Virus record (IMG/VR): IMGVR_UViG_3300031784_000002
DNA from: a virus
Taxonomy: Duplodnaviria; Caudoviricetes
DNA length: 64,000 bases
Strand: one strand, 5' to 3'
The notes below the pieces were generated by a model. The model was given only the letters and a program-made list of their open reading frames with translations. It did no database searches and was not told where the DNA came from. The position numbers were made by a program, and so were the translations under genes. Below, piece after piece: positions 1,461 through 27,371 of the stretch (its first letter is position 1; each line of letters opens with the position of its first letter).

Positions 1461-1657
1461 AAGAATGGATTGAAGATGCTTGGTGGTCTTGGGTCAATTG
1501 CATCAACTTTCGATTTGTGAAGTATGGTGATGATATAGATCGTTTTGCCTTCTTCGAAGAACTAAACAACGGTTGGTATCAGATGTATATCTACCCTTAC
1601 GATGATTGGTATCATCCGACTATCTCAGAAGAACGAAAAAAGTTTCTAGGGCCATGA
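1457..1657 (+). CDS. hypothetical protein (Trp-rich)
   Basis: ATGA overlap. Confidence 0.65.
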   Translation: MKEWIEDAWWSWVNCINFRFVKYGDDIDRFAFFEELNNGWYQMYIYPYDDWYHPTISEERKKFLGP

Positions 1658-1706
1658 TTCAAACTGGCACACAAGGGGCGCTGATGCTCTCGATAGGTTG
1701 TATAAT
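1648..1706 (+). promoter_or_regulatory. dyad promoter cassette 1 (degenerate)
   Basis: agggccat-N8-ctggcaca, 29 bp, TATAAT at 1701. Confidence 0.6.
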
Positions 1707-1736
1707 GAAAACAATGAAGGACTGAAACGACTTGCT

Positions 1737-1922
1737 ATGGTTGAAAAAGTAAAGTTTGTAAGTGTCACCCGTGTGATTGATGACCGCAAAGGTATTCATT
1801 ACCTTGATGCTATTGATGAGAATGGGTATCACTGGACTGCTGAAATGGATAACAAACAAGAGAAATGGTTAGTGTATACGAAAGTGTGGACTAAAGACCC
1901 TCAAATGCCGTATGATATATGA
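1737..1922 (+). CDS. hypothetical protein
   Basis: ATG 1737 downstream of cassette 1. Confidence 0.65.
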   Translation: MVEKVKFVSVTRVIDDRKGIHYLDAIDENGYHWTAEMDNKQEKWLVYTKVWTKDPQMPYDI

Positions 1923-2140
1923 AAAACTACCGCATCAAAAAAGTCACAGACGGACACTCAACCAGATACTACCCACAACACAAAAGATTTGGATTGTTCT
2001 GGTATAATCTATTTGTAGACGAATATAGGGATGGTGATTATTCTACATTTGAAGAAGCACAGTGGCACCTTTGTAACTATTTGAGGGAACCTGTGGTAGA
2101 ATACCTTGACTTTGATTGTGATTGTGGAGAACCTCTGTGA
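1919..2140 (+). CDS. hypothetical protein
   Basis: ATGA overlap. Confidence 0.7.
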   Translation: MKNYRIKKVTDGHSTRYYPQHKRFGLFWYNLFVDEYRDGDYSTFEEAQWHLCNYLREPVVEYLDFDCDCGEPL

Positions 2141-2352
2141 CTGAACCTATCAAACTCTGTAAGGATTGTAAGCACTACAAAAGAGATTGGAATGCTCGTT
2201 TTACTGGATTTGGAGATACTTTTGATTTGTGTCTCCATCCTGCTTTGACTGGAAATCTTGTGACTGCAAAAAATAATGGTCGTTATTGTGATAGTATGAG
2301 AAAGTATCACGAATGTGGGATGGACGGAAAACTTTTTGAGGCACGTAAATGA
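2137..2352 (+). CDS. hypothetical Cys-rich protein (CxxC, possible Zn-binding)
   Basis: GTGA overlap; CKDCKHY, CLHP, C..C motifs. Confidence 0.65.
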   Translation: MTEPIKLCKDCKHYKRDWNARFTGFGDTFDLCLHPALTGNLVTAKNNGRYCDSMRKYHECGMDGKLFEARK

Positions 2353-2552
2353 CTGAAGAATTGTATAAAACACAATACCCAGCACTTCAAATCAACAATC
2401 CAAAGCTATCTAACTGGAATTGTTATATGTTCGGCAATCGTCCTGGTGGTGTTGGAATAATGTATACTCCAGAAGAAGGAAGAGTGCCTAATAGGTTTGT
2501 GAGGTTCATGATGAAGATTTGTTTTGATTGCACTTGGGTGGAGAAGAAGTGA
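2349..2552 (+). CDS. hypothetical protein
   Basis: ATGA overlap. Confidence 0.7.
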   Translation: MTEELYKTQYPALQINNPKLSNWNCYMFGNRPGGVGIMYTPEEGRVPNRFVRFMMKICFDCTWVEKK

Positions 2553-2776
2553 ATAAAGAAGAATACTATAAACACATAGAAGAAAACGACACTTACCCAG
2601 AACATTCTCATAAGTGGATTGTGAGAACTTATACTGGTGAGTTGTTCTATCGCAACTTCGGCACATTTGAGACTAAAGAAGAAACAAAAGAGTTTATTGA
2701 GAATTATAAGGTAAAATATACAACCAAAGGATTTATTACAAGATATAGTATTCAAGGAGTTTGTGAGGTATTATGA
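2549..2776 (+). CDS. hypothetical protein
   Basis: GTGA overlap with upstream stop. Confidence 0.65.
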   Translation: MNKEEYYKHIEENDTYPEHSHKWIVRTYTGELFYRNFGTFETKEETKEFIENYKVKYTTKGFITRYSIQGVCEVL

Positions 2777-2834
2777 GGGACACTTGAAGAACTGTCACAG
2801 GGACACTCCAAAGCCCCCTGTGATGCCTTATAAT
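2776..2834 (+). promoter_or_regulatory. dyad promoter cassette 2
   Basis: agggacac-ttgaagaa-ctgtcaca, 29 bp, TATAAT at 2829. Confidence 0.75.
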
Positions 2835-2856
2835 ACACTCATAATCAACCAAACCG

Positions 2857-3048
2857 ATGCCTACTCCCAAAGAAACCTACGAATACGTTGAACAACTGAT
2901 TGATGAAGAACTCAACACTTTGATTGATACAGCATATCTCAACAAAGAAGGTGAAGCACTCGTAAGGTTCAAACAAGACTTCAAAGACCTTTACAAACAT
3001 TTGGAGAACATTCAACAAATGAAAAAATCTTATCTTTCAGGACGATGA
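2857..3048 (+). CDS. hypothetical protein
   Basis: first ORF after cassette 2. Confidence 0.7.
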   Translation: MPTPKETYEYVEQLIDEELNTLIDTAYLNKEGEALVRFKQDFKDLYKHLENIQQMKKSYLSGR

Positions 3049-3290
3049 AACTCTACCAGCACTCCAAACAAACTTATCAGGATGGTGAAGTAGATCACAC
3101 TTGGCAGTTTGGTATCATCAAAAACCGAGCACTACTCTGGGTGAATTTTGAAAGCCCTGGTGGTGTCATTCATTCTTCTGGTGGTATCAACCTCTTGTTT
3201 TCTTTCTTTGGTAATTCTCTTATGAGTGTAGATTTTCAACAACGCAAATTTTGTTTAGCAGTTGCTTTTATTACTGAATACGATGACTGA
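3045..3290 (+). CDS. hypothetical protein
   Basis: ATGA overlap. Confidence 0.7.
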   Translation: MKLYQHSKQTYQDGEVDHTWQFGIIKNRALLWVNFESPGGVIHSSGGINLLFSFFGNSLMSVDFQQRKFCLAVAFITEYDD

Positions 3291-3489
3291 ACGCAATTTC
3301 AAACAAGAACTTGTACACTCCTGTTATTATGACATGGAAGATGGACATGACAGCGAAACAATTGATTATGATTGTTTGATTGGTGTTATCACTGAATTGT
3401 GTGATAGAATAGAACAACTTGAATCTGAAGTCAAGATTCTAAACCGAAAACTTACGGAAGACACATTTGAAGTGATTAAAAATGACTGA
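3283..3489 (+). CDS. hypothetical coiled-coil protein
   Basis: ATG 3283; heptad-like C-terminus. Confidence 0.7.
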   Translation: MTERNFKQELVHSCYYDMEDGHDSETIDYDCLIGVITELCDRIEQLESEVKILNRKLTEDTFEVIKND

Positions 3490-3775
3490 CCCAACCCACG
3501 AAGAAATGCTTGAAGAAGCAGAACGAAGAGAAGCAGCAAACAAAGCAGCATTAGAATCACTTGGAATTGACTACGAATCTTTCGGACAGAAACCTTGGAA
3601 TGAAGGTCATTTGGATTATGAAGCACCGAATGGTGATTACATCAAAAACTATCCACTCATCAATCGGGTGGAGGTAATTGGACCGAATGGACGAGAGTAT
3701 GTTAATTACGAATGCTCTAACATCCAAGTATCAGAACAAGACAACGGACGCACACTTAAGGTATTTCTATCATGA
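3482..3775 (+). CDS. hypothetical protein
   Basis: ORF in operon. Confidence 0.7.
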   Translation: MTDPTHEEMLEEAERREAANKAALESLGIDYESFGQKPWNEGHLDYEAPNGDYIKNYPLINRVEVIGPNGREYVNYECSNIQVSEQDNGRTLKVFLS

Positions 3776-4374: not shown

Positions 4375-4376
4375 TC

Positions 4377-4860: not shown

Positions 4861-5027
4861 AACGCAACCGTTCTCAAATACCTGAGTTTTACAAAGTCGG
4901 TTATATTTTAGATTATGAACAGAAATGGGCCTGTTACTTTGACTTTAATTGTGCTCAGGAAGCCATGATGAAGATGATTCAACGTGGTATAAATGTCACT
5001 GGAATGGAAACACAAATGATGGTGTGA
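4857..5027 (+). CDS. small hypothetical protein
   Basis: 56-aa ORF read manually; its TGA lies inside the cassette-3 half-site. Confidence 0.6.
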   Translation: MKRNRSQIPEFYKVGYILDYEQKWACYFDFNCAQEAMMKMIQRGINVTGMETQMMV

Positions 5028-5094
5028 CAGTCTTTTGGCTGTCCACTGATCTCGCCGAAGGGGCTCTGATCTTGGTATCTTAGCCATGTTGAGA
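5023..5094 (+). promoter_or_regulatory. dyad promoter cassette 3
   Basis: tgtgacag-N8-ctgtccac, 29 bp, TATCTT(5076)AGCCATGTTGAGA. Confidence 0.85.
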
Positions 5095-5148
5095 CACGGA
5101 TGTGGTCTTGACGCAACACAAACCCCTCTCAAGTAACTTCAAGACAAC

Positions 5149-5532
5149 ATGGCGACTCGTTCTCGCATCGGTGTTCAACTTAAGAATGGCTCTGTCCTTT
5201 CGGTGTATTGTCACTGGGACGGCTATCCTGAGTGGAATGGTAAGAAACTGAAAGAACACTTCAACACTCGTCAGAAAGCTGCAGAGTTGGTTGATGGTGG
5301 TGACATCAGTTCTCTGTGGACTGATAAAGATTGGGACGGTAAAGAACAGGAGTTTGGTACTCTTTACTACGAAGGCCGTGGTGATGTAGATACCGAACCT
5401 AATCTGGACAACTCTTTCCAAGCTTTCATTGGTTCTGTGAACGATTCTTGGTGTGACTACGCTTACCTGTTTACAAATGGTGAGTGGAAGTGTTATACTA
5501 CTAAAGGTAATGAAGAACAAATCCCTGCGTGA
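5149..5532 (+). CDS. conserved phage hypothetical protein (YCHWDGYP motif)
   Basis: MATRSRIG...SVYCHWDGYPEWNG is a pattern widespread in phages. Confidence 0.8.
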   Translation: MATRSRIGVQLKNGSVLSVYCHWDGYPEWNGKKLKEHFNTRQKAAELVDGGDISSLWTDKDWDGKEQEFGTLYYEGRGDVDTEPNLDNSFQAFIGSVNDSWCDYAYLFTNGEWKCYTTKGNEEQIPA

Positions 5533-6075: not shown

Positions 6076-6458
6076 TTAAATCTCTGTTGATTTTGACTTC
6101 GCTGGTGTTCACTGCACCAGTATTTGCACAGACCACACCACCAAAACCAAAGGTGTATCGTCCATTTGTGTATGAAACTCCATGTGTACTTGAGGCAGGA
6201 CTTCAAACCTATCCAGATACATGTAAAGTTGTAGAAACTCGTGAGACTGGCGGTGCTCTGCGTACTCGTAACATCTTTTCTAACAAGTTTGGCCTTACTA
6301 TTAAGGGTAGATTTGACAAAGAGAAGGGTTATATGACTTGGGATAGTCATAACAAGTATGAGTATAAGTGGGAGTACAAGGTTGGCGGTAATCAAGAGTC
6401 TGGTTCATGGACTTATGTGATGCCTGGCTTCCTTCTACAAAACGTATCTTGGGACTAA
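6072..6458 (+). CDS. secreted/periplasmic hypothetical protein
   Basis: signal-peptide-like N-terminus (...VFA-QT). Confidence 0.7.
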   Translation: MIKSLLILTSLVFTAPVFAQTTPPKPKVYRPFVYETPCVLEAGLQTYPDTCKVVETRETGGALRTRNIFSNKFGLTIKGRFDKEKGYMTWDSHNKYEYKWEYKVGGNQESGSWTYVMPGFLLQNVSWD

Positions 6459-6461
6459 ATA
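6454..6461 (+). promoter_or_regulatory. T4-like late promoter
   Basis: ACTAAATA 19 bp upstream of the acetyltransferase ATG. Confidence 0.55.
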
Positions 6462-6480
6462 CTGAATTTCGGGGACTCAA

Positions 6481-7101
6481 ATGTTCATCAAAAATAATAA
6501 ACCAGTTAAAATAATTGGATTTCCCGAATCTTCAATCACTCAACAATACTTTGAAGTTTTCAATAAGGAAGGATTGAAAGATATTTCTATAATCACTCCC
6601 AAAGACTTCAAAGCTTTAATTTCAAAAGATAACTATCAATACATTATTGCTTTCTATCTTGACATGGATCTTAGAAAAGAGGTCTGTGATTTATTAGATA
6701 ATCTTAATCTAGATTGTTTAACATACATAGATGATTCGGTTTACATGTTCTCCTCTTCCAAAATTGGAAGGGGATCTTTTATTGGTCATTTGTGTGAGAT
6801 TTGTTGGAATGCTTCAGTAGGCGATCATTGTTATTTTGATAACCAATCTGGTATTGGTCATGATGTTATCCTAGGTAGAAATAGTATCATTAGTTCAAGA
6901 GTTTATGTTGGTGGGAGAACAAAAATAGGAGAAAACTGTAAGTTCTTTTTGAATGGAACAGTTATGAATAACTTAAACATTTGTGATAATGTAATTTTAT
7001 GCACACACAGTAACATAACAAAAGACATCACAATTCCTGGGAAGTATGTTGGTAGAAATGCAAGACTTATGAAATCTGAAGAGTCCGATAAGGATCTCTG
7101 A
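6481..7101 (+). CDS. NeuD/PglD-family sugar O/N-acetyltransferase (hexapeptide repeat)
   Basis: N-terminal Rossmann-like part, left-handed beta-helix repeats, IGHD catalytic motif. Confidence 0.8.
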   Translation: MFIKNNKPVKIIGFPESSITQQYFEVFNKEGLKDISIITPKDFKALISKDNYQYIIAFYLDMDLRKEVCDLLDNLNLDCLTYIDDSVYMFSSSKIGRGSFIGHLCEICWNASVGDHCYFDNQSGIGHDVILGRNSIISSRVYVGGRTKIGENCKFFLNGTVMNNLNICDNVILCTHSNITKDITIPGKYVGRNARLMKSEESDKDL

Positions 7102-7113: not shown

Positions 7114-7142
7114 TTGACTCTCCCCCGAATCCACAGTATTTT
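7114..7142 (+). promoter_or_regulatory. host-like sigma70 promoter
   Basis: TTGACT-17-TATTTT. Confidence 0.7.
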
Positions 7143-7312: not shown

Positions 7313-7818
7313 TGAAAGAAGTTGTAAGACATTCTTACAAAGATGGAGAAATCTCTGAGACTCGTACTCTGAGGTTTCTCCCGTTTTATTATAACCAAGA
7401 GATTGCGGAGTCAATGATGATGATTATTCGCAATCATCTGACTCCAGATCTTCTCACTAAAAAATATCGGGAAGAAAATGTAAAGAACCCGATGTATGGT
7501 CATTGTTACCATTCAACTCAGGCCCTATTCTATCTCTTGGATCCTCATGATTTGATTCCAATGAGCGGGATAGATTACAGAGGTGATACACATTGGTGGT
7601 TGTATGATGACCGAGGAGTTACCTACGACACCACAGCTGATCAGTATTACTCTGTGGGTCAAGTTCCGCCCTACGATGTAGGTAAGAGAACACAATGGTA
7701 TGGTTGGAAACAACGACCACACCAAAGATCACTGGACTTAATTATGCGAGTCCTTTATGCTTGTAACATTGAGTATTGTTACGAAACCCTCAAACCTCAG
7801 ACAGGGCCCTTGACATAG
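7312..7818 (+). CDS. YunG/transglutaminase-like Cys-His-Asp fold protein (putative)
   Basis: GHCYHST...THWWL...YDTTADQY motif spacing. Confidence 0.5.
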   Translation: MKEVVRHSYKDGEISETRTLRFLPFYYNQEIAESMMMIIRNHLTPDLLTKKYREENVKNPMYGHCYHSTQALFYLLDPHDLIPMSGIDYRGDTHWWLYDDRGVTYDTTADQYYSVGQVPPYDVGKRTQWYGWKQRPHQRSLDLIMRVLYACNIEYCYETLKPQTGPLT

Positions 7819-7838
7819 TTCTTTGTCTGATGTATTCT
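7810..7838 (+). promoter_or_regulatory. host-like sigma70 promoter
   Basis: TTGACA-17-TATTCT. Confidence 0.8.
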
Positions 7839-10880: not shown

Positions 10881-11924
10881 ATGAAAACAAAATCACTAGA
10901 AAATTATAACTCAAGTGTTGGACTTGAAGTTTATGACATTGATTGGAATTGTGAAGAAGAACTATTGGAACTCGGTAGGCTATGTGCATCTGAGTGTGTT
11001 GTTTTCCTGAATGAAAATATCTCCACTGAGAATCTATTTGATGTGATGAGTAAGTGGGGAGATCCAAGTCGAGCTTTCACCCATGAGTATATCTGTGACA
11101 AGAAACTCACAGGTCGTCACTGGAGAGAGATCCTTGCTAACCTAGGTTACATTAGTAATGCAGCTGGTAACTATTTGAGTCAAGCAGTTGCCTATGTCAG
11201 TTACAAACAGGAAGACAAAGGCCGTCCAGCTGGAATGTTCCAGAATGGGGAACTAAATTGGCACAGCGATCAGTGTGCATTTGAGGATGCACAGAGAGTT
11301 ATTGGTCTTAAGAGTGTCAGTGATTCTGAGAACAGTCAAACGCAGTTCCTATGTACTCATGACGCTTATGAATCTCTGAGTTCAGAGATGAAAAGTATGA
11401 TCAAAGAACTTGTGGTAAAACATAAGTGGATTGACAATGAAATGGCTCCTGTTCTCAACGATGTTCAGTCATCTTTGCTCCGTTACAACATGGTTCCCCT
11501 TGACGGAATGGAGACCTCCCTTTACACTGAGACTGCATCTGGCCTATCTGGAATGAAGATTCCAAGTTGTTCTTTTGATGGATTTGTTGGACTCTCCAGA
11601 GAAGAAAGTAATAAGATCCTGAATGAAATTAAAAAGGTAGTCTTTCAGGACAAATATGTGTACACACAAAACTGGAAAGATGGCCAAGTAGTTTTCATGG
11701 ATCAGGAGATTACTCTACACAAGAGACCAACAAACATCCAAGCCGGAAATAAACGAACAATGGCTAGATCAATCTTTTATGTCAACAAACTGTTCGACAC
11801 AGAAAAAGCTCAAAGGGTTACAACAGTCAAACACAACGGTTCTGTCTACAGTATAGAAGATTTTGTGAAACTTGTTGATGAAGACCGAAAGAAAAACTAC
11901 GAGAAAAAGTATCAACCTGCATGA
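10881..11924 (+). CDS. TauD/TfdA-family Fe(II)/2-oxoglutarate dioxygenase
   Basis: WHSD (HxD) and WKDGQVVFMDQEITLHKR distal His/Arg. Confidence 0.85.
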   Translation: MKTKSLENYNSSVGLEVYDIDWNCEEELLELGRLCASECVVFLNENISTENLFDVMSKWGDPSRAFTHEYICDKKLTGRHWREILANLGYISNAAGNYLSQAVAYVSYKQEDKGRPAGMFQNGELNWHSDQCAFEDAQRVIGLKSVSDSENSQTQFLCTHDAYESLSSEMKSMIKELVVKHKWIDNEMAPVLNDVQSSLLRYNMVPLDGMETSLYTETASGLSGMKIPSCSFDGFVGLSREESNKILNEIKKVVFQDKYVYTQNWKDGQVVFMDQEITLHKRPTNIQAGNKRTMARSIFYVNKLFDTEKAQRVTTVKHNGSVYSIEDFVKLVDEDRKKNYEKKYQPA

Positions 11925-12310
11925 TGTTTCCCAACACAAGTATCCTGGATCCAGACAATGGCCCAACAGGATTTGCTACTGATGACTTCCAATTTGCTGC
12001 TATCCCGTTCGGCAAAAAGTATATGATCATTGCAAATGGTCAACAACTTGAAGTAGTCAAGACCCGACAACTTGCTGAGATTCGGCTTGAACAATTAAAA
12101 AACTCGCATCGGAAACTCAAGAAGGGTACTAAGACTCCTGTGCAACCAAAATCGCAAAAAAAGGCGAAAACGCCTAGTGGCCAACAGGGATCTCAGGGGA
12201 CAAAACCCAAGGCCACCAAGGGTTCCCCCACAAAACCAAAATCCAAGAGTGTGACAGTCAAGAAACCGTACACTCTTCATCCAAATCCGCTCCTTGACGC
12301 ATTAAGTTAG
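11921..12310 (+). CDS. hypothetical protein with Lys/Pro-rich tail
   Basis: ORF; its 3' end reads through cassette 4. Confidence 0.65.
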   Translation: MMFPNTSILDPDNGPTGFATDDFQFAAIPFGKKYMIIANGQQLEVVKTRQLAEIRLEQLKNSHRKLKKGTKTPVQPKSQKKAKTPSGQQGSQGTKPKATKGSPTKPKSKSVTVKKPYTLHPNPLLDALS

Positions 12311-12319
12311 CCATGTTGG
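12250..12319 (+). promoter_or_regulatory. dyad promoter cassette 4 (inside a CDS 3' end)
   Basis: tgtgacag-N8-ccgtacac, 29 bp, TAAGTT(12303)AGCCATGTTGG. Confidence 0.75.
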
Positions 12320-12327
12320 TAAAGACT

Positions 12328-12540
12328 ATGACTACGAAAACAAAACGGGTTTCCGTTGTACCACTGTCCAGTAAAGCTAAGAACCGATTCCATAATGTTA
12401 TGGATCAGTTCCACATGTGTACTGTAGAACAGGAAAAGACGATTGATGGTGTACCTCACTTGTTCCTAGTTTCTATGAACAAAATGTACTGTTTCTGGGT
12501 TCCTGTCAAGGGTAACGAACACTGGAAAATTGAACGGTGA
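12328..12540 (+). CDS. conserved cyanophage hypothetical protein
   Basis: MTTKTKRVSVVPLSSKAKNRF; ATG downstream of cassette 4. Confidence 0.7.
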   Translation: MTTKTKRVSVVPLSSKAKNRFHNVMDQFHMCTVEQEKTIDGVPHLFLVSMNKMYCFWVPVKGNEHWKIER

Positions 12541-13755: not shown

Positions 13756-13784
13756 TTGACAAATTCAAACAAAACATCTACACT
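13756..13784 (+). promoter_or_regulatory. host-like sigma70 promoter
   Basis: TTGACA-17-TACACT. Confidence 0.75.
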
Positions 13785-14233: not shown

Positions 14234-14413
14234 ATGATTGATCCTAACTTTAATGATCCAGAGAAACTTCATAGACTTCATGCACAAAAATTAGAAGCAA
14301 TGAAAACTCTGATGAATGAAATTGTAGCTAATCCTGAAAGTGTAAAAGTAAGTGATATGCAAAAAGTAATAAACTTTTTAGATCAATCTTCAGACAGTGT
14401 GACAGATCAATAA
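14234..14413 (+). CDS. small hypothetical protein
   Basis: 59-aa ORF read manually. Confidence 0.55.
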   Translation: MIDPNFNDPEKLHRLHAQKLEAMKTLMNEIVANPESVKVSDMQKVINFLDQSSDSVTDQ

Positions 14414-14456
14414 CTGTCACAGGGGCTCTTCACAGGGCCCTTTTTTCGTGTATTAT
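14398..14456 (+). promoter_or_regulatory. dyad promoter cassette 5 (perfect palindrome)
   Basis: TGTGACAG-atcaataa-CTGTCACA, 29 bp, TATTAT at 14451. Confidence 0.85.
14421..14446 (+). terminator. intrinsic terminator inside the cassette-5 spacer
   Basis: aggggctc-ttcaca-gggccc followed by T6. Confidence 0.65.
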
Positions 14457-14462
14457 GGCTAT

Positions 14463-15377
14463 ATGAAGAACACACATCTCGAACATCCCGAAGATTCTGC
14501 ACTTCTCGGTAAGAAAGCCGTGCAGGATACTATCAATTACCTGCGTAACTGCAAAGGTGATTGTAGTGTGAAATATGATGGTGCTCCTGCTATTGTTTTT
14601 GGGACTAATCCCGAGAATGGTAAGAAGTTTGTAGGTACAAAAAGTGTATTCAATAAGGTCAAAGTTAAGATCAATTATACACACTCCGACATCGAAAAGA
14701 ATCACGGCACGAATCCTAAAGTTGCAGCGATTCTTCATACCTGCCTTTCTCACTTCCCGCAGTTTGATGGGATTTATCAGTGCGATTGGATTGGTTATGG
14801 TGGTGAAACAACTTTTACGCCTAATACTATTACCTACAATTTTGATTCCGTTCCAGGTATTCTGGACGTTGATCTTATTGTCGCTGCTCATACACATTAC
14901 ACTGGAGATTCCATCAAGGAACTGGAGGCACATTTTGGTGTCCCTAACTATCTTTCTGGTCGTTTTCTTGGTATTCATTTTGTAGATGGAAATGCACAAT
15001 TTACCTCCCGTCGTCGTAGGATTGATTACATTCTTGGTCTTGCAAGTGTGGTTAGCAATTTTGTTAGATACCCTGATGAAAAAGAAGTAGCGAACCTTAA
15101 AATTGCAATCAATAAGTGTATCCGAGAGAATCGACCTGTTGATTGTATTGATGGCAATCTCCTCCTGTTGTTCAACCTGTTGACCAAAGCTAAAGAATTG
15201 ATCATGGAAGGAATCTCCGTGACTGGTGATCAGGTTGATGCACGGATTGATATGGGCATTGATTACATTCCTTCTGGCCATGAGGGTTATGTTCACTCCA
15301 ACGATTACGGGACTTTCAAGTTAGTTAATCGTCGTATGTTCTCTTACTACAACTTCACCAAACCTAAAGGTTGGTGA
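14463..15377 (+). CDS. ligase-like nucleotidyltransferase (DUF6267-like)
   Basis: MKNTHLEH start; VKYDG (motif I KxDG), EGYV (IV), FKLVNR (V). Confidence 0.65.
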   Translation: MKNTHLEHPEDSALLGKKAVQDTINYLRNCKGDCSVKYDGAPAIVFGTNPENGKKFVGTKSVFNKVKVKINYTHSDIEKNHGTNPKVAAILHTCLSHFPQFDGIYQCDWIGYGGETTFTPNTITYNFDSVPGILDVDLIVAAHTHYTGDSIKELEAHFGVPNYLSGRFLGIHFVDGNAQFTSRRRRIDYILGLASVVSNFVRYPDEKEVANLKIAINKCIRENRPVDCIDGNLLLLFNLLTKAKELIMEGISVTGDQVDARIDMGIDYIPSGHEGYVHSNDYGTFKLVNRRMFSYYNFTKPKGW

Positions 15378-15449
15378 GGACAGTTACGGAACCGTCCACT
15401 AGAGGCGCCAGGCGACTCCCTGGCGATGTATCTTAGCCATGTTGAGAGG
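15376..15449 (+). promoter_or_regulatory. dyad promoter cassette 6
   Basis: gaggacag-N8-ccgtccac, 29 bp, TATCTT(15429)AGCCATGTTGAGAGG. Confidence 0.85.
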
Positions 15450-15456
15450 TTCACCC

Positions 15457-15630
15457 ATGAATCGCATTGAGATCCAACGGGCACTGTATGATGCCCGCAA
15501 CAACTACCTCAAAGCGAAAGCTTCGGTAGAGTTCTATCGTAAGGAGATCATGTTCCTCAAGGAATGTGAAGCAAACCTCGACAAACCTGAAAACTGGTTG
15601 TATCAGGAAATGTTCGGAGTTGAAGCATGA
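15457..15630 (+). CDS. hypothetical protein
   Basis: GAGAGG SD 7 nt before ATG. Confidence 0.7.
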   Translation: MNRIEIQRALYDARNNYLKAKASVEFYRKEIMFLKECEANLDKPENWLYQEMFGVEA

Positions 15631-16177: not shown

Positions 16178-16347
16178 ACTACCTTTGTCTCGTTGATGGT
16201 GTTGTTGAGTACGGCAGCACAAGTCTCTCCGACTTTGCACACTATCAATTAGTGTATGCTGAAGAGCATAGAAATGCTGATGTTCAGTATCTTACTCTAA
16301 CTGACGAAGAATACGACGAAATGTTCCCTTACGAGGAGGATGAATGA
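16174..16347 (+). CDS. small acidic hypothetical protein
   Basis: 57-aa ORF, ATGA overlaps. Confidence 0.65.
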   Translation: MNYLCLVDGVVEYGSTSLSDFAHYQLVYAEEHRNADVQYLTLTDEEYDEMFPYEEDE

Positions 16348-16529
16348 CTTACACTATTACCAAACACATCAAAATTGAGCACGAAGAAGATGGTTGGAGT
16401 TTTGATTTTACTGCTGATGAGTGTGGAACTGTGAGTGTGGAAGATGGTAATGGACCAGGATTTCAAACCATTCATATTCCTAAAGATTGTATTCAACACT
16501 TCATTGATGTCCTGGGACAATACAAATGA
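16344..16529 (+). CDS. hypothetical protein
   Basis: ATGA overlap. Confidence 0.65.
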   Translation: MTYTITKHIKIEHEEDGWSFDFTADECGTVSVEDGNGPGFQTIHIPKDCIQHFIDVLGQYK

Positions 16530-16789
16530 CTTACTCTAACCTCTCCAAGATTCGTCCCAAACTGAGAACAACTGGGCGTGTGTCAGGAAACTTCGGACGC
16601 AACAAAGTTGTTAGTGGATCTCCCCTAAATGATGTAGGTATGAGTAACGCAGAAGTCGTAAAGTGTATGAAACAGGATGAATACCTTGCACGGCTTTGGT
16701 ACGCATTTGATAACACTGATGATGACAAACTAAAACAATTCGTTTATACTGAAATTAAAAAGATTCACATTCAACGAGGTACATGGTGA
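16526..16789 (+). CDS. conserved cyanophage hypothetical protein
   Basis: SNLSKIRPKLRTTGRVSGNFGRNKV motif. Confidence 0.75.
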   Translation: MTYSNLSKIRPKLRTTGRVSGNFGRNKVVSGSPLNDVGMSNAEVVKCMKQDEYLARLWYAFDNTDDDKLKQFVYTEIKKIHIQRGTW

Positions 16790-17006: not shown

Positions 17007-17078
17007 TGTGACAGTTGGCGGGCTGGACACCAAACCCGCCAAACCCAGCCAGATCCTGTATCTTGGCCATGTTGAGAG
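17007..17078 (+). promoter_or_regulatory. dyad promoter cassette 7
   Basis: tgtgacag-ttggcggg-ctggacac, 28 bp, TATCTT(17059)GGCCATGTTGAGAG. Confidence 0.85.
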
Positions 17079-17087
17079 ATGAATCAA

Positions 17088-17252
17088 ATGCGAATCGACA
17101 TCCGTTGCCCTGCAGCTCCTTGGGAGAATCACACCACTGATCATGACAAAGCTTATGACATTGCATTTAATTTGAGTGAAGAGTATCAGTGCGATGTTGA
17201 CCTCTTTTACAACTCCACTGGTGGACTTTACTCTGTTGTTTCTGCATACTGA
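17088..17252 (+). CDS. small hypothetical protein (MRIDIRCPAAPWEN...)
   Basis: 54-aa ORF read manually after cassette 7. Confidence 0.7.
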   Translation: MRIDIRCPAAPWENHTTDHDKAYDIAFNLSEEYQCDVDLFYNSTGGLYSVVSAY

Positions 17253-18181: not shown

Positions 18182-18253
18182 TGTGACAATCCGCAAACCG
18201 CACACCAATTCAACCAAAGGTGGCCATGAGGATGTATCTTAGCTATGTTGAGA
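18182..18253 (+). promoter_or_regulatory. dyad promoter cassette 8
   Basis: tgtgacaa-N8-ccgcacac, 29 bp, TATCTT(18235)AGCTATGTTGAGA. Confidence 0.8.
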
Positions 18254-18269
18254 CAAACACACAAACCCC

Positions 18270-18491
18270 ATGACTTTCGTTGACGCACTGATCGCATCTG
18301 GTTATGTCTTTGATGATGAGAATTATGATGGTTGTTATGTGAAACAAGACTCAGAGGGTTTCATTCACTGTTATCAGGAAAATGTGGATGATGACACTGA
18401 CACTCTCTGGAATTATGTCAAAATGACTGAGGATTTTGATGTGATTCATGAGGTTACTTTTGATCCCAATGTTGATACTATTGTTGAGTGA
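18270..18491 (+). CDS. hypothetical protein (acidic)
   Basis: first ORF after cassette 8. Confidence 0.7.
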   Translation: MTFVDALIASGYVFDDENYDGCYVKQDSEGFIHCYQENVDDDTDTLWNYVKMTEDFDVIHEVTFDPNVDTIVE

Positions 18492-18746: not shown

Positions 18747-18929
18747 ATGAACGACAAAACTAAACTCATTTTCGCATTGATGCAGATTGATAACATCACC
18801 AACCTGATGAAAGAGAATGAGTATGAGCACTTTATGGTGTCACACTTAATTCCACTTCAGGTAGAGATTCAACGACAACTGAGCAACATAAACCATAGGG
18901 AGTGTGCCAGTCTGCAGACCGTCCACTAA
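18747..18929 (+). CDS. conserved cyanophage hypothetical protein
   Basis: KTKLIFALMQIDNITNL...ELQRQL-like. Confidence 0.65.
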   Translation: MNDKTKLIFALMQIDNITNLMKENEYEHFMVSHLIPLQVEIQRQLSNINHRECASLQTVH

Positions 18930-18976
18930 ACCTGCCGAAGGGGGCCGTGGCCTTGTATCTTAGCCATGTTGAGAGG
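18903..18976 (+). promoter_or_regulatory. dyad promoter cassette 9
   Basis: tgtgccag-N8-ccgtccac, 29 bp, TATCTT(18956)AGCCATGTTGAGAGG. Confidence 0.85.
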
Positions 18977-18983
18977 AACGCAA

Positions 18984-19226
18984 ATGACCCGCAAGTTTCA
19001 CACCATGAGCATCGAAGATCGTGAAATGTTTGCTTACAATTCTGCCTACCAAAAGCAACAGGCCGAGATGAAGCGTATTCTTGCACAACCCGAGCAACGC
19101 ATTAAGTATGCCTTTGAGTTTCTGAAAGGTTATGTTGCTGATGGTGATCAAATGATGGCAGCAAAGTGTTACAATGCCATCGCAAAGTACAGTGAAATGC
19201 TTGACACTTCTGAGGCCCACTTCTGA
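18984..19226 (+). CDS. hypothetical protein
   Basis: SD GAGAGG then ATG. Confidence 0.7.
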   Translation: MTRKFHTMSIEDREMFAYNSAYQKQQAEMKRILAQPEQRIKYAFEFLKGYVADGDQMMAAKCYNAIAKYSEMLDTSEAHF

Positions 19227-19790: not shown

Positions 19791-19862
19791 TGTGACAGTT
19801 GGCGGGCCGTCCACCAAACCCGCCAAAGGGGCCCAGGGCCCTGTATCTTAGCCATGTTGAGA
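19791..19862 (+). promoter_or_regulatory. dyad promoter cassette 10
   Basis: tgtgacag-ttggcggg-ccgtccac, 29 bp, TATCTT(19844)AGCCATGTTGAGA. Confidence 0.85.
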
Positions 19863-19874
19863 CAAACAAACGCA

Positions 19875-20156
19875 ATGCGCTACATCACTATCACCTTCGG
19901 CCCTCGCAACGATGATCCTAGCCAGTTCTACAACGAGCGTACTTGGTGGGATCGTCAGAGTCAAGCTGAGAAGTGGGGGCTTCAGTCTCTCTCAATCGCA
20001 GGTTGTTTCGGTTATGTTGTGATTGAAGAGGGAGAGGATTCGTGGAAGATTGTGGATGAACTTGGTGCTCCTTCTAATGCTGTGAGTGTGTCTGCTGAGT
20101 ATAAAGGTGGAGTCACCTATTCTGTTCAACCTGCACCTAAACTTGTTCTGGTTTGA
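19875..20156 (+). CDS. hypothetical protein
   Basis: ATG after A/C-rich leader. Confidence 0.7.
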   Translation: MRYITITFGPRNDDPSQFYNERTWWDRQSQAEKWGLQSLSIAGCFGYVVIEEGEDSWKIVDELGAPSNAVSVSAEYKGGVTYSVQPAPKLVLV

Positions 20157-20494: not shown

Positions 20495-20650
20495 ATGGTC
20501 GTTCACTTCTACGAAGGTCAATCCTACTCCTGGAATTATGCCAACCGCAGCTACGATGATAGTGGTTGCTGGGAAGATTATCTGTCTGGGGATGAGTATG
20601 AAGAGGCTCTAGATCGTAAGCGGTTTGAGCAATCAAATCGGGACTGGTAG
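20495..20650 (+). CDS. small hypothetical protein
   Basis: 51-aa ORF; its TAG is the first 3 nt of cassette 11. Confidence 0.6.
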   Translation: MVVHFYEGQSYSWNYANRSYDDSGCWEDYLSGDEYEEALDRKRFEQSNRDW

Positions 20651-20720
20651 GCCAATTTACTGGCTGCACACTAAATCCGCCGAGTGCAGCCAGAACCTGT
20701 ATCTTAGCCATGTTGAGAGG
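20648..20720 (+). promoter_or_regulatory. dyad promoter cassette 11
   Basis: taggccaa-N8-ctgcacac, 28 bp, TATCTT(20700)AGCCATGTTGAGAGG. Confidence 0.8.
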
Positions 20721-20727
20721 AATCGCA

Positions 20728-20937
20728 ATGACCGAGTTCCAAACTATCATCAACGATCTGACTCCCGAAGAGCGTAAAGCTCTAAAAGAAGCAACTGCTC
20801 CCGAATGGGTCAAAGCTATCCGTGAGACTGTCAATGATCCAAACTTTTGGAATGACATGGCTATTGCTTTTGCTCAAGGAGTTATCAACGGATTGAATGA
20901 TGCTCTGGATGACAACAACAATCGCCGTCACCGCTGA
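20728..20937 (+). CDS. hypothetical protein
   Basis: SD then ATG. Confidence 0.7.
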   Translation: MTEFQTIINDLTPEERKALKEATAPEWVKAIRETVNDPNFWNDMAIAFAQGVINGLNDALDDNNNRRHR

Positions 20938-21131
20938 TGACTGACGCACAAAAGCTTGAGGCACTGACTGACCTTCTCTCCAATGTCATTCACTCTCTGG
21001 AGATGACAAAGTATGAGATTGAAGATGTATCAGAGGCAGCAAATGTGGTTCGTGAGGCAGACCACTATCACCAACAAATGCTAGACATTCTTCATGGTGG
21101 CCCAGTTGAAGAACCTGCACAAGCCCCCTAG
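20937..21131 (+). CDS. hypothetical protein
   Basis: TGATG overlap. Confidence 0.65.
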   Translation: MTDAQKLEALTDLLSNVIHSLEMTKYEIEDVSEAANVVREADHYHQQMLDILHGGPVEEPAQAP

Positions 21132-21172
21132 ACTTCTCCAGCCAGATCCTGTATCTTAGCCATGTTGAGAGG
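21098..21172 (+). promoter_or_regulatory. dyad promoter cassette 12 (also has a -35-like TAGACT)
   Basis: tggcccag-ttgaagaa-cctgcaca, 30 bp, TATCTT(21152)AGCCATGTTGAGAGG. Confidence 0.8.
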
Positions 21173-21184
21173 AATCGCTCCCCA

Positions 21185-22427: not shown

Positions 22428-22498
22428 TGTGACAATTGGCTCCCTGGGCCAGATTCTCGCCAAAGGGCCCCTCGGCCCCATATATTGGCCACATGAGG
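22428..22498 (+). promoter_or_regulatory. dyad promoter cassette 13
   Basis: tgtgacaa-N8-ctgggcca, 29 bp, TATATT(22481)GGCCACATGAGG. Confidence 0.75.
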
Positions 22499-22545
22499 GA
22501 GAGGGAACGACCCCGACCCCGACCAAACCATTCTCTGCTCAAACC

Positions 22546-23512: not shown

Positions 23513-23586
23513 TGTGACAGTCTTCGGACTGTCCACTAAATCCGCCAAACCCCAGCCAGTCTTGGTATCTTAGCCATGTTGAGAGG
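23513..23586 (+). promoter_or_regulatory. dyad promoter cassette 14
   Basis: tgtgacag-tcttcgga-ctgtccac, 29 bp, TATCTT(23566)AGCCATGTTGAGAGG. Confidence 0.88.
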
Positions 23587-23593
23587 TTCACGA

Positions 23594-23764
23594 ATGACCA
23601 ACGCAACCAACTTCATTCCCTGCACTGACATCGAAACCCGTCAAGCTATGTGGGTTGGTATGAAATACGATGAGCAACTTGGTATCTTCAATGCTGTTCA
23701 AGTTGCATCGGCTTTCGCAGATCGTTATGCGGAAGATTACAAGCCTGTGACCTTCTGTGACTGA
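23594..23764 (+). CDS. hypothetical protein
   Basis: SD then ATG. Confidence 0.7.
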   Translation: MTNATNFIPCTDIETRQAMWVGMKYDEQLGIFNAVQVASAFADRYAEDYKPVTFCD

Positions 23765-23789
23765 ATCCAACTCTACATCTTCCAAACAA

Positions 23790-23932: not shown

Positions 23933-24079
23933 ATGCGAATCGCTCTTCTGATTGCTACTCTTGCTCTTGGACTGAAGACTGGTCTTGCTGCTCATGCTAC
24001 GGTGAATGCCTATCAAGAAGCACAAGCCGAACGGCTGTGCCAGATTGATCCAAGCTACTGCGGACTGAAGCAAAAGTAG
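23933..24079 (+). CDS. small exported/membrane protein
   Basis: hydrophobic N-terminus; CQIDPSYC; its TAG begins cassette 15. Confidence 0.65.
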   Translation: MRIALLIATLALGLKTGLAAHATVNAYQEAQAERLCQIDPSYCGLKQK

Positions 24080-24141
24080 GACAGTCTGATGGCTGTCCAC
24101 CAAATCCGCCGAACCGACCCGTTTGGCCCTATATTGGCCAC
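24077..24141 (+). promoter_or_regulatory. dyad promoter cassette 15
   Basis: taggacag-N8-ctgtccac, 29 bp, TATATT(24130)GGCCAC. Confidence 0.85.
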
Positions 24142-24465
24142 ATGAAGAACAACACCACTCAAATGTCACTTTTCTCCCAAGGCTGGAAAGCTGAAGAATA
24201 CTTCGGTAGCGAGCTGACTGCTCATCACATGAACACTCGTTCGGTGTATCGTTTCAAGGAGAATGCCAATGTGAGCATCACTCACTCCGGAAAGTATGCT
24301 GAAGATGGAACTGTTGATGTGTTCACAGTTTCTGTTCGTGAGGAGATCAATCCTCGCCACTCGGTTACTCAAACTGTTGAGACCTTTGCTAACTTTTTGG
24401 ACGCATACTACTGCGGTGTGCAGTGTGTCAACAATCTGAATCTTGATCTCATCACTATTAACTGA
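24142..24465 (+). CDS. hypothetical protein
   Basis: ATG at predicted +1 (or internal ATG 24163). Confidence 0.7.
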   Translation: MKNNTTQMSLFSQGWKAEEYFGSELTAHHMNTRSVYRFKENANVSITHSGKYAEDGTVDVFTVSVREEINPRHSVTQTVETFANFLDAYYCGVQCVNNLNLDLITIN

Positions 24466-24487
24466 ATCAATTTACTGAGCAACTATC

Positions 24488-24937
24488 ATGAACATTTTTG
24501 ACCTGCAACGTGATCTCCAGAAGGAAAAGCTTTCTCTGGAAGAATTGCTGACTGAAGTGAAGGCTTCACTGGTGACGATCAACGAAAACCTAGAAGCTGT
24601 TGATCGAGTTGCCAAGATGTTTGGTGGAAAAGCCACATCGCCCGAACACAATCAAGAGTTCATGGCTAAACTACGTTCGCTGCTCTCTCAGAAGTTCAGC
24701 CAGAGGGAAGTTGATGAACTCATTGAAATTATTGAGCAAGATGATGTGCGGAGGCTGAACGGCAAACTGAATAAGAACCCTGCAAGCTACACTCACCAAG
24801 TTCTCGCATTGTGCTATCAGATGCGAATTGTGAATGGTAACATTCAAGATCACATGAAGGATGCGATTAAGCGTCTGCGTGAAGCTGGCCACATTTCAGT
24901 GGAGCAATCTAAGTGGTTTGTTTCACAAGGTTTCTAA
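24488..24937 (+). CDS. hypothetical coiled-coil protein
   Basis: 149-aa ORF. Confidence 0.7.
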   Translation: MNIFDLQRDLQKEKLSLEELLTEVKASLVTINENLEAVDRVAKMFGGKATSPEHNQEFMAKLRSLLSQKFSQREVDELIEIIEQDDVRRLNGKLNKNPASYTHQVLALCYQMRIVNGNIQDHMKDAIKRLREAGHISVEQSKWFVSQGF

Positions 24938-24940
24938 TCA

Positions 24941-25013
24941 TGTGACAGCCATGCGGCTGTCCACCAAATCCGCCGAGACCCGCCATCTGATGTATTCTAG
25001 CCATGTTGAGAGG
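24941..25013 (+). promoter_or_regulatory. dyad promoter cassette 16
   Basis: tgtgacag-N8-ctgtccac, 28 bp, TATTCT(24993)AGCCATGTTGAGAGG. Confidence 0.85.
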
Positions 25014-25026
25014 AATCGGAACCCAA

Positions 25027-25203
25027 ATGAAAGTCTACGCTGTGATCGGTGGTTGGGATTATGAAGGCGAAGACTTTCAATCCCTGCGCCTGTTTGATTG
25101 TTTCTCTGCTGCTGATGCGTACCTGAAGCAACTTGATGAAGAATACGATTATGCTAAGATGGACACCCGCGAGGTGTGCATGGAATCTGCAATCGCTGCT
25201 TGA
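25027..25203 (+). CDS. hypothetical protein (MKVYAVIGGWDYEGE)
   Basis: first ORF after cassette 16. Confidence 0.7.
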   Translation: MKVYAVIGGWDYEGEDFQSLRLFDCFSAADAYLKQLDEEYDYAKMDTREVCMESAIAA

Positions 25204-25205
25204 TC

Positions 25206-25367
25206 ATGAAAAACTATCGCGTTCGTGTTGAAACTAACGATGGCTGTGTCACGATTTGGTATGAGAAATCAAACGCAAAACGTGCTTGTGATCTTATCAA
25301 CAATCGGGTCTACAATCAGCTCTGTGGGTTGAACATCAAGGAAGTTGAAGTAACTCCTTCCGTCTGA
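25206..25367 (+). CDS. hypothetical protein
   Basis: ATG 25206. Confidence 0.65.
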   Translation: MKNYRVRVETNDGCVTIWYEKSNAKRACDLINNRVYNQLCGLNIKEVEVTPSV

Positions 25368-25400
25368 ACTTTTCTTCTTAATTAACACAAACACAAACTC

Positions 25401-25586
25401 ATGACTAACACTTTCGACCGCGCACAACTCGTTGAAGATTACATTCAACAACTGATTGAGGGAATGGACTATAAAACAATGGAGTGCTTTGTTTATGATA
25501 CTATGAAAGAGAATCTTTCTAGTTATACTGATGAAGAATTGATTACAGAGGTTCAAGACTACTATCCTGAGCTGATTGAAGGCTGA
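25401..25586 (+). CDS. conserved cyanophage hypothetical protein
   Basis: DRAQLVEDYIQQLIEGMDYK...ELI.EV..YYPELI. Confidence 0.7.
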   Translation: MTNTFDRAQLVEDYIQQLIEGMDYKTMECFVYDTMKENLSSYTDEELITEVQDYYPELIEG

Positions 25587-25657
25587 TTCGCCATTTGCGA
25601 ATAGAGAATGAGATGCGCTCTAAAGACACTCACATTCCCAAACACTTTGCTACTCTC

Positions 25658-25783
25658 ATGATTCAAACTCGTAAAGACTTCTTCATTCAAGTTCTCGATC
25701 AGTTTGCTACTAATGGTAACGAACTTCTGCAGATTCTGGATGACATCGAATCTGGCGAATGTGAATGCTTTCTCGAAGATTGA
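25658..25783 (+). CDS. small hypothetical protein
   Basis: ATG 25658 after SD-less leader. Confidence 0.55.
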   Translation: MIQTRKDFFIQVLDQFATNGNELLQILDDIESGECECFLED

Positions 25784-25829
25784 GCTCTAATTCTTTACAC
25801 TTTTCCCAAACACTTTTCTTCTTTTTCTC

Positions 25830-25988
25830 ATGACTCTTCAAACTGCAATCTCCATGCTTCAGAGTGCTCGCAACGGCGCCGAAATGCTTGAGGTTCTTGA
25901 TAGTCTCGCAGGTGGCTATGAGTACATCGAGTCCCCCATGATTGCTCAGGTGCTCGGAGTGCCCACGCTTGAACCAATGGAGTTCTGA
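25830..25988 (+). CDS. small hypothetical protein
   Basis: 52-aa ORF read manually. Confidence 0.6.
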   Translation: MTLQTAISMLQSARNGAEMLEVLDSLAGGYEYIESPMIAQVLGVPTLEPMEF

Positions 25989-25999
25989 TGATAGAATAG

Positions 26000-26024
26000 A
26001 GGGGGCTGAATAAGTCCCCTTTTG
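26000..26024 (+). terminator. intrinsic terminator
   Basis: agggggct-gaata-agtcccct followed by TTT. Confidence 0.65.
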
Positions 26025-26388
26025 TGTCAACTTAACCCCGTAAATTGACTTCAATTCGTCACAACTTACGACATGAAGAAACGCTACCTGATTGCTGCAT
26101 CAATTCTGCCATTGACTCTGCTTGTGTTCGCAACAGTTCGGGACAGTTGTGCTAATCCCAGCTATGCCCAATACTTTACAGAATCATGCCAGACAAAATG
26201 ACACAATCAAATTGGGCTGAGAATCTAACACCTGAAGAGCAACAACAAACTTACAACGAGATCGTCAATTATCTCAAAGAAGAAGTGCTTTCACAGGTGT
26301 CAGAAAAGTATGACAAACCCATTGCCTATAAGTACAGAAACGTATAAAATAGTAACGTACCTTCAACCACATTCAAGGACACACACTC

Positions 26389-26574
26389 ATGCAAACCATC
26401 AACAACAAAGTTACACGCTATCGAGTTACGTTAGACTTTACAGTTGATACATCTAACTGTGTAAGTCCTAAGGAATGGAACTGGGCTCAACTTCTCGAAC
26501 TTGGTAACAGCGAATCAGTCAATGAGGTTTATGTAGAGAATCTCGGAGAATATAACATTCGTAGGAGCAAGTGA
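26389..26574 (+). CDS. hypothetical protein
   Basis: 61-aa ORF. Confidence 0.65.
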   Translation: MQTINNKVTRYRVTLDFTVDTSNCVSPKEWNWAQLLELGNSESVNEVYVENLGEYNIRRSK

Positions 26575-26784
26575 AGATGGGAGAAGATCAAGAGTTTTTT
26601 TACAACGAAATGATCGAACAAAGTTACTACGAAGAGGGAACGATTGACTGGGATGATTGCTCTCAAGGTGCGACTGAAGTAGAGTCTTATGATCCATAAG
26701 CTTTCAACGGAGACAACAGCAAAGGAGGAGTGGAGTTACATTGCTTTAGTCCTCAAAGAGTTGTTATCAATGAGTTATGAAAGC

Positions 26785-27113
26785 TTTTCCACAAGGCTGT
26801 TGAAAAAGCTGTGGAAAAATGGCTTTAAAATAAATGGCTAAAAAAACATGGCTTGTGTGAAAGCTTTCTCGTTTATGTTCTCTCTGTGGCCCCTCTGATG
26901 GCTTATAAAAAAGCCTCTGAGCCTTATGCTTATGTCCTCTAGAAAGCCTCTGAGACCTTGTGATCTAAGCGTGCAGGCTATCACACGACCGCATAAATGT
27001 CAAGAGGCACCTCACATAAGTCTCCGGGACCACACAATTTGAGCAACTTACCCCCCTCACAGTTCTTATAGTTTTCCACAGCACTTGTGGAAAAAGTCTA
27101 TAAGTTTTCCACA
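26785..27113. repeat. cluster of five TTTTCCACA (cyanobacterial DnaA-box consensus) 9-mers
   Basis: + copies at 26785, 27072, 27105; - copies at 26810, 27086; one-mismatch copy at 26798 (-). Confidence 0.8.
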
Positions 27114-27150
27114 GCCTTATGAGCACTCTAAGTCCCCCACATCTCGGAGC

Positions 27151-27180
27151 TTGACATAAGCCCTCTGAAAGCCTTATAAT
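27151..27180 (+). promoter_or_regulatory. perfect-consensus sigma70 promoter with no downstream ORF
   Basis: TTGACA-18-TATAAT. Confidence 0.75.
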
Positions 27181-27298
27181 AACTCTGTGGGAGTGCATAA
27201 AGGGGCTGAGTGCTTAAGCCTAAGCTAAAGGACTTATGTAAAGCTCAAGCCACAGAGACTTATGAGCCTACCATAGATTGCTGAGATCCAGAGACACA

Positions 27299-27371
27299 AT
27301 GGACACTTATCTAACTGGCCACAGAATGTGCCAGAGGGAGCCAGATCCCGTATATTAGCCATGTTGAGAGG
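27299..27371 (+). promoter_or_regulatory. dyad promoter cassette 17
   Basis: atggacac-N8-ctggccac, 28 bp, TATATT(27351)AGCCATGTTGAGAGG. Confidence 0.8.

Follow-up and report, generated by a model that had tools for sequence, protein, structure and literature searches.

The window analysed here, the whole 64,000-nucleotide stretch of the IMG/VR record IMGVR_UViG_3300031784_000002, is the early region, dense in small open reading frames (ORFs), of an uncultured freshwater T4-like phage of the Kyanoviridae. Its large ORFs encode a helicase and a TauD-like dioxygenase, then baseplate wedge proteins and giant structural proteins, and the order of small ORFs, helicase, small ORFs and baseplate matches the layout of cyanophage Syn9. 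Between the small ORFs of this hyperplastic region, on the coding strand, stand tandem copies of a cassette of about 90 bp, headed by an inverted repeat (the dyad) and closed by a start codon. These cassettes, candidate promoters of the early genes, are the subject of this report.

The cassette array

The first-pass annotation of this DNA had listed 17 dyads, each followed at a fixed distance by a TAnnnT hexamer, and inspection of the window sequence agrees with it: at all 17 starts a dyad-like 24-mer is followed 28 to 30 bp on by TAnnnT. All copies lie on the plus strand between 1.6 and 27.4 kb. The count of at least 17 cassettes stands for copies that keep the geometry, but the set is not uniform, being made up of 14 strong, near-identical copies and 3 weak, divergent ones. 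Within a cassette the dyad TGTGACAG-N8-CTGTCCAC is followed by the block CAC-YAAAYCCGCCRAA, a GC-rich spacer, TATCTT, AGCCATGTTGAGAGG and ATG. A profile built from the copies and run over the whole window gave 14 strong matches, all on the plus strand, with E values from 1e-12 to 1e-23 (at 5019, 12246, 15377, 17004, 18179, 18900, 19787, 20645, 21094, 22426, 23511, 24075, 24937 and 27301). It matched weakly at the copies 2776 (E = 0.04) and 14396, missed the copy at 1648, which is too divergent for detection and still has the geometry of dyad, 29 bp and TATAAT, and found no cassette from 28 to 64 kb. The three divergent copies have TATAAT or TATTAT as their -10 boxes and degenerate left arms. 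Chance is excluded as the source of the array, since the counts are far above expectation for a relaxed dyad pattern (11 matches in the window against 1.3 expected), for the -10/leader core (11 against 0.05) and for a dyad weight matrix (12 high-scoring plus-strand matches against 0 to 1 in shuffled sequences).

At the -35 position stands not TTGACA but a conserved block, CCGCC(R)A, as the GC-rich -35 region of the annotation implied; CCGCCA agrees with the -35 consensus at three of six positions in most copies, and the exception, the cassette at 21098, has TAGACT-N17. In every cassette an ORF opens with ATG 22 to 35 nt past the -10 box, after a Shine-Dalgarno sequence GAGAGG or GAGG; these ORFs encode 47 to 107 aa, or 304 aa in the case of the ORF at 14463, and are mostly ORFans. 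The stop codon of the upstream ORF falls within a few bases of the dyad in 9 of 14 cassettes. The separate class of dyad-less promoters that had been annotated is also present as TTGAC-N17/18-TAnnnT at 7114-7142, 7810-7838 and 13756-13784, to which a fourth at 27151-27180 is added; those at 7114 and 7810 have a -10 box and GGCC discriminator like those of the cassettes.

Individual cassettes differ in detail along the array, all on the plus strand. The first two are divergent: 1648..1736, recognised by geometry, has a degenerate dyad 29 bp from TATAAT and precedes the ORF at 1737-1922, and 2776..2856 has a degenerate left arm at the same distance from TATAAT, ahead of the ORF at 2857-3048. The cassette at 5023..5101, found by pattern and profile, combines a consensus dyad, an extended -10 box (TGG-TATCTT) and the conserved leader, and the upstream ORF stops within its dyad. 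At 12250..12327 the profile finds a variant with TAAGTT as -10 box, overlapped by the upstream ORF 11921-12310 and followed by the ORF at 12328-12540. The weak profile match at 14398..14462 has a perfectly palindromic dyad 29 bp from TATTAT, with the ATG of the DUF6267 protein (14463) almost directly after. Core pattern and profile agree on the next seven: 15376..15456 (ORF 15457-15630); 17007..17078 (ORF 17079-17252); 18182..18269 (ORF 18270-18491), of the TGTGACAA subtype and, by folding, of poor pairing; 18903..18983 (ORF 18984-19226), whose dyad is crossed by an upstream ORF running to 18929; 19791..19874 (ORF 19875-20156); 20648..20727; and 21098..21184, the copy with TAGACT at -35.

The remaining five include two of the TATATTGGCCACATG subtype, both found by profile: 22428..22545, which has a long leader and a Kyano_Gp96 homologue downstream according to Pfam, and 24077..24141 (ORF 24142-24465). 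Freshwater relatives, but not marine ones, retain a self-complementary purine-rich/pyrimidine-rich stretch, GAGGGAGAGGGAAC...CCCC, in the leader of the former (22481-22545). Pattern and profile both find 23513..23593 (ORF 23594-23764), with a consensus dyad and TGG-TATCTT, and 24941..25026 (ORF 25027-25203), with TATTCT as -10 box. The last cassette, 27299..27378, found by core pattern and profile, precedes a DUF7249 ORF identified by Pfam (27379-27624) and follows a gene-free interval in which five perfect copies of the host-type DnaA box TTTTCCACA, on both strands, all lie at 26785-27113. Base composition also changes along the window, in a sharp step from 38 to 47% GC at 1-28000 (peaking at 20 to 24 kb) to 28 to 37% in the structural part at 28000-64000.

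Conserved parts and distribution

The anatomy of the cassette was taken from 95 unique copies, from the window and 45 IMG/VR loci. The dyad core is GACAGTY-N4-RRCTGTC, flanked by TGT and CAC, which are non-symmetric, and CAC-YAAAYCCGCC follows directly. Its best-conserved columns are G-A/C-C-A-G-T in the left arm and C-T-G-x-C/A-C-A-C in the right arm; elsewhere they are G-C-C at -35, T-A-T-x-T-T, and G-C-C-A-T-G-T-T-G-A-G-A. The end of the dyad lies 28 bp from the -10 box in 38 cassettes and 29 bp in 54, together 92 of the 95, and the invariant C of one arm and G of the other are 13 bp apart in 89. In promoter coordinates the dyad would extend from about -65 to -42, and the -10 box is followed by a GC-rich discriminator and a conserved leader of about 20 nt. 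TGG, the canonical TGn of an extended -10, precedes TATCTT in 43 of the 95 cassettes and in only 2 of the 17 window copies, most of which have TG one base too close to serve in this way.

Among the isolates of a phage collection none is near-identical; they show only short patches of similarity, in S-PM2, S-SRM01, DSL-LC02 and S-CREM1, and one weak cassette match, in S-8S53. Lake and freshwater metagenomes make up most of the roughly 20 runs, spread over 15 studies, that contain more than 89% of the region. Small parts of it occur in low-depth Logan contigs of three metatranscriptome runs; the ends of such contigs are uninformative on transcript ends, because DNA contigs also break at the repeated cassettes. 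Three longer relatives, including a 249-kb genome that is rated as complete, have the -10/leader core 11 to 14 times on one strand, confined to a single segment of 16 to 22 kb, with zero matches to a control pattern. Outside the early region of G124, the record to which locus L002 belongs, the minus strand at 134434-135575 has three copies of AATATTAGCTACATTAG about 500 to 650 bp apart, which may be a different repeated promoter-like unit.

The dyad itself reaches much further than the rest of the cassette. At up to two mismatches, with zero control matches, it was found five times in P-SSM4 (three of the five clustered at 47 to 49.5 kb), five times in DSL-LC02 (three of them perfect), four times in Syn9, and once each in P-SSM2 and the marine S-8S53; the last has the entire cassette, leader included. 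The first-pass annotation had raised a possible link to Syn9, and the Syn9 genome does hold four to five copies of the dyad plus -10 box at 43 to 49 kb: clear ones at 43113, 44774, 47204 and 49078 and a weaker one at 48558. All are on the plus strand, 28 to 31 bp before TATAGT, TATATT, TACTAT, TATACT or TATTCT, with TTGAC at -35 in two, and they precede small ORFs and the helicase.

An exact 16-base dyad is present in at least 118 IMG/VR stretches. Among the matches listed there are 113 unique viral dyads, 84 of which have TAnnnT starting at +28 to +31, against a background of about 2 per offset; of the 95 listed copies that lack the core seen in the window, 66 still have the hexamer in this range. 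The sequence around the dyad and -10 box is diverse among these 113 copies, and in 32 contigs the region that precedes the orthologous Kyano_Gp96 gene conserves only the same two elements. Since only these persist across the listed copies and the 32 contigs, constraint falls on the dyad, the -10 box and the phase between them; by sequence comparison, both the CCGCC block and the ATGTTGAGAGG leader are clade-specific. Two groups of matches stand apart. In four viral contigs (L205, L207, L212 and L252) the exact dyad recurs within coding-looking sequence of no assigned family, with no -10 box at the usual distance, and is either a coding-sequence coincidence or a conserved peptide. One cassette match in an Acetobacteraceae metagenome-assembled genome (MAG; L102) and four in a Microbacteriaceae MAG (L129) are probably mis-binned cyanophage DNA.

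Nature of the dyad

The consensus dyad could pair as a 7-bp stem with a 4-nt loop, UUCG in the copy at 23513, and a precedent exists in the PeSL cassettes of T4-like phages, tandem units of stem-loop, early promoter, Shine-Dalgarno sequence and start codon that flank ORFans and mark indels and exchanges (PMC2839356, PMC4122927). If the window cassettes were classical PeSLs, the dyad would act at the RNA level, its stem-loop ending or stabilising the transcript from upstream, next to an ordinary early promoter. Its position at the 3' end of upstream ORFs is consistent with such a stem, as are the identical order of parts in PeSLs (PMC4122927), the six window copies that fold well (z from -2.8 to -4.8, one with the UUCG loop), and one RNA-library contig that ends at 19816, just past a dyad, this being a single contig at a repeat.

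The variation among copies speaks against it. In 89 aligned dyads, 77.5% of the pairing cells were complementary against 79.3% in column shuffles, the covariation score was 0.143 against 0.181, and neither pair tables nor mutual information revealed any compensatory change between the arms. Of 83 distinct sequences, 45 lack the central A:U pair and 21 to 24 have broken G:C pairs, while the flanks TGT and CAC are conserved though unable to pair. Compared with dinucleotide shuffles, only 5 to 6 of the 17 window dyads have an advantage in folding; 11 have none, at z from -1.1 to +1.7. Nor is the dyad followed by a U-tract, so that it lacks the combination of GC-rich stem and U-tract that defines an intrinsic terminator. 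Moreover, the sequence itself is conserved from Syn9 and P-SSM4 to the freshwater phages, whereas PeSL stems vary between phage groups. A conserved RNA hairpin was rejected on mutual information, pair counts and folding, and the classical PeSL reading as a whole appears quite unlikely.

From the covariation and folding tests we conclude that the dyad is, in all likelihood, a sequence-specific double-stranded recognition site: because the variation of the arms is not compensatory, it is better read as double-stranded DNA than as a hairpin. The symmetric preference T-Y...R-R around a free N4 centre suggests two half-sites read by a dimer. This reading narrows the search for the binding factor and supplies a precise bait for pull-down experiments.

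Module exchange

The cassettes also leave a footprint in the recombination of the early region. In locus L017 a single cassette at 5503 joins the upstream gene and left part of the cassette at 20648 to the leader and downstream gene of that at 21098, and the module between these two in the window (ORFs 20728-20937 and 20937-21131) is absent. In a lake DNA run, joints at 23590 and 24944, the edges of cassettes, bound two further variants, one replacing 23591-23786 and the other lacking 24441-24943 and ending at the dyad. Endpoints of internal BLAST homology fall in cassettes 69 times against 25 expected, a count from 45 related loci that are not independent. In recombination, then, the cassettes behave like PeSLs, and the hybrid cassette marks the indel of a module. 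As near-identical tandem repeats they offer patches of homology through which small gene modules can be inserted, deleted or swapped, and this explains the reshuffling of an early region rich in ORFans.

Two patches of the window resemble more distant phages: 16344-16534 is 89% identical to 6306-6496 in the "ORFanage" region of S-PM2, and 20935-21094 is 95% identical to S-SRM01. Such similarity fits the passage of small early modules between cyanophages of fresh and coastal waters. An integron-like reading, with the repeats as counterparts of attC sites, was dropped, as there is no integrase and each unit has its own promoter.

The dyad might itself be mainly a recombination site, or a pair of DnaA-like boxes, that serves module shuffling or replication without acting directly in transcription. 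The hybrid cassette and the homology breakpoints at cassettes would suit this, and the right arm, TGTCCAC, is similar to TTTTCCACA, the DnaA box of the host. The crossover in L017 falls, though, in the shared promoter and leader part, as plain homologous recombination predicts; no recombinase is evident; strict phasing with the -10 box is left unexplained; and the likeness to the DnaA box, whose terminal A is shared by just 17 of the 95 copies, was judged too weak. We consider this explanation highly improbable.

Proposed regulatory role

We favour, with moderate confidence, the view that the unit is a class-specific early promoter cassette whose dyad is bound as double-stranded DNA by a phased dimer that activates or recruits RNA polymerase, and that serves in addition as a homology patch. 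The repeats, their geometry and conservation, the lack of RNA covariation and the recombination footprint are there to be read in the DNA; that the cassettes act as promoters, and do so early, that a protein binds the dyad and that its effect is positive all belong to the model, as follows. Each unit starts where the small gene before it stops, or close by. A dimeric protein would sit at about -65 to -42, on one helix face relative to RNA polymerase, and contact host polymerase carrying the primary sigma factor, by activation or recruitment. The promoter would be set mainly by its -10 box, helped by TGn in part of the family, with a weak -35, and the outcome would be a strong immediate-early class. 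The binder would be a protein that Prochlorococcus and Synechococcus have in common, or else would arrive with the virion. Given that the dyad is a protein site, activation is somewhat the better bet, because the site lies upstream and its phase tolerates a change of only 1 to 2 bp.

Several observations weigh against this view. In many marine copies a perfect dyad stands with TTGAC at -35 and a TATAAT-like -10 box; given such good core elements there, and TGn in 43 of the 95 cassettes, the promoters might do without an activator, and the dyad could instead be an operator for repression or timing. At up to two mismatches, no dyad occurs in S-PM2 or S-CRM01. The 7-bp stem and 4-nt loop of the consensus leave a structural role of the dyad possible, and a host regulator with its own regulon finds no support in host genomes, in which dyad and core are not enriched. 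What had been annotated as a promoter unit mostly free of a canonical -35 holds up as class-specific, of fixed geometry and weak at -35, whereas the argument from it for an activator is weakened by the TGn and marine TTGAC copies.

Because many copies have good core elements, the main alternative is an operator for shut-off: the promoters would fire alone with host RNA polymerase, and a phage-encoded repressor would bind the dyad to shut off or time the early class. A class-wide operator is the usual phage means of early-gene shut-off. Perfect dyads beside TTGAC and a TATAAT-like -10 box in many contigs and in Syn9, the extended -10 able to replace a -35, and host scans that returned no regulon would all suit such a repressor. 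The site, at -65 to -42, lies beyond the core promoter and keeps within 1 to 2 bp of a fixed distance to the -10 box, which fits contact with polymerase better than occlusion, and Pfam shows no DNA-binding domain among 16 cassette-driven ORFs, so we regard a repressor as rather improbable.

Resistance in Prochlorococcus and Synechococcus does not keep generalist T4-like cyanophages, Syn9 being one of those examined, from transcribing their early genes (PMC6708340). It follows that the binding factor is common to these hosts, is delivered with the virion or is unnecessary. The first-pass annotation had suggested looking for the dyad in host genomes, and the scan, over 121 Cyanobiaceae genomes and bacteria at large, returned no regulon. 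The exact dyad is not enriched in bacteria, its 101 scattered stretches in 596 Gb, among them the phage-like contigs L102 and L129, being no more than chance, and the palindromic core occurs in 8 of the 121 genomes against 7 control matches.

A single host site may nevertheless be relevant. At least 20 of the 121 Cyanobiaceae genomes share one orthologous match to both arms, for example GTGACAGTC-GCAC-AACCGTCCAC, at about 2001-2023 of the oriented loci L152-L167, within a conserved intergenic block of about 200 bp flanked by two ORFs without Pfam families. This copy has no -10 box at +28/29 and no adjacent transcription factor, and the conserved block, checked in four host loci, has no match in Rfam at gathering score. 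Exact dyads with the phage-like inner pattern TT....AA occur in filamentous cyanobacteria (L081, L088, L112 from Moorena, L118 and L151), that of Moorena about 115 bp upstream of a 606-aa RtcB-like ORF, and one Coleofasciculaceae genome has three related sites. We treat the host copies as a lead only; about 0.05 such matches per genome would be expected by chance, agreement at the inner positions being left out of this figure.

A bolder form of the model, possible though somewhat doubtful, makes the dyad the operator of a factor that licenses immediate-early transcription across the Kyanoviridae, whether one that Prochlorococcus and Synechococcus share or one that enters together with the phage DNA; the sites in the phage would copy the single conserved operator of Cyanobiaceae hosts. 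Such a factor would be the missing first step of the cyanomyovirus programme and possibly an intracellular determinant of host range.

Relation to known systems

A large fraction of the picocyanobacteria in seas and lakes fall victim to T4-like cyanophages, which to our knowledge are without T4's Alt, Mod, MotA and AsiA. The first-pass annotation had described the early programme as unlike that of T4, which proved only half right, for the architecture and recombination of the cassettes come close to T4-type PeSLs. Both are composite intergenic units in hyperplastic small-ORF regions, with inverted repeat, promoter, Shine-Dalgarno sequence and start codon in the same order, and in both the copies mark indels and exchanges between related genomes, as seen here in the L017 hybrid, the endpoint enrichment and the variant joints. 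Unlike PeSLs, the window cassettes have an inverted repeat that is conserved in sequence across genera, shows no compensatory change and is often unable to fold; their dyad is held 28 to 29 bp from the -10 box, the -35 is mostly not sigma70-like, and the leader is conserved too.

Promoters of the CRP and NtcA type likewise combine an upstream dyad and a weak -35 with a fixed helical phase relative to the -10 box. The annotation's remark that the dyad does not match their spacing is confirmed by the column statistics of the 95 cassettes: measured between centres, the GACAG cores lie 13 bp apart, and TGTGA is separated from TCCAC by 19 bp, against 11 bp in TGTGA-N6-TCACA and GTA-N8-TAC. As the half-site spacing differs, CRP-like and NtcA-like sites are ruled out; the dyad is also centred near -53, not at -41.5 or -61.5. 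Extended -10 promoters offer a further comparison, in that TGG-TATCTT could make a -35 dispensable in the 43 cassettes, 2 of them among the 17 in the window, that have it.

The closest counterpart is probably in Syn9, in which Doron et al. reportedly described in 2016 a novel regulatory element of early genes. Judged through the Syn9 genome, the cassette element is most likely the same thing. In both cases the early genes of a T4-like cyanophage carry a non-standard element upstream and do not follow the MotA/AsiA scheme of T4. Syn9 and the window share the spacing from dyad to -10 box and differ in leaders and -35 regions. The unit of dyad and -10 box is thus already of a known kind, of which the window is a clear new example, unusually clean and repeated. 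To that kind the present comparison adds evidence against an RNA stem, a recombination footprint, a lead in host genomes, and a definition that separates the constrained parts (the dyad, its phasing of 28 to 31 bp and the -10 box) from the -35 region and leader, which are free to differ.

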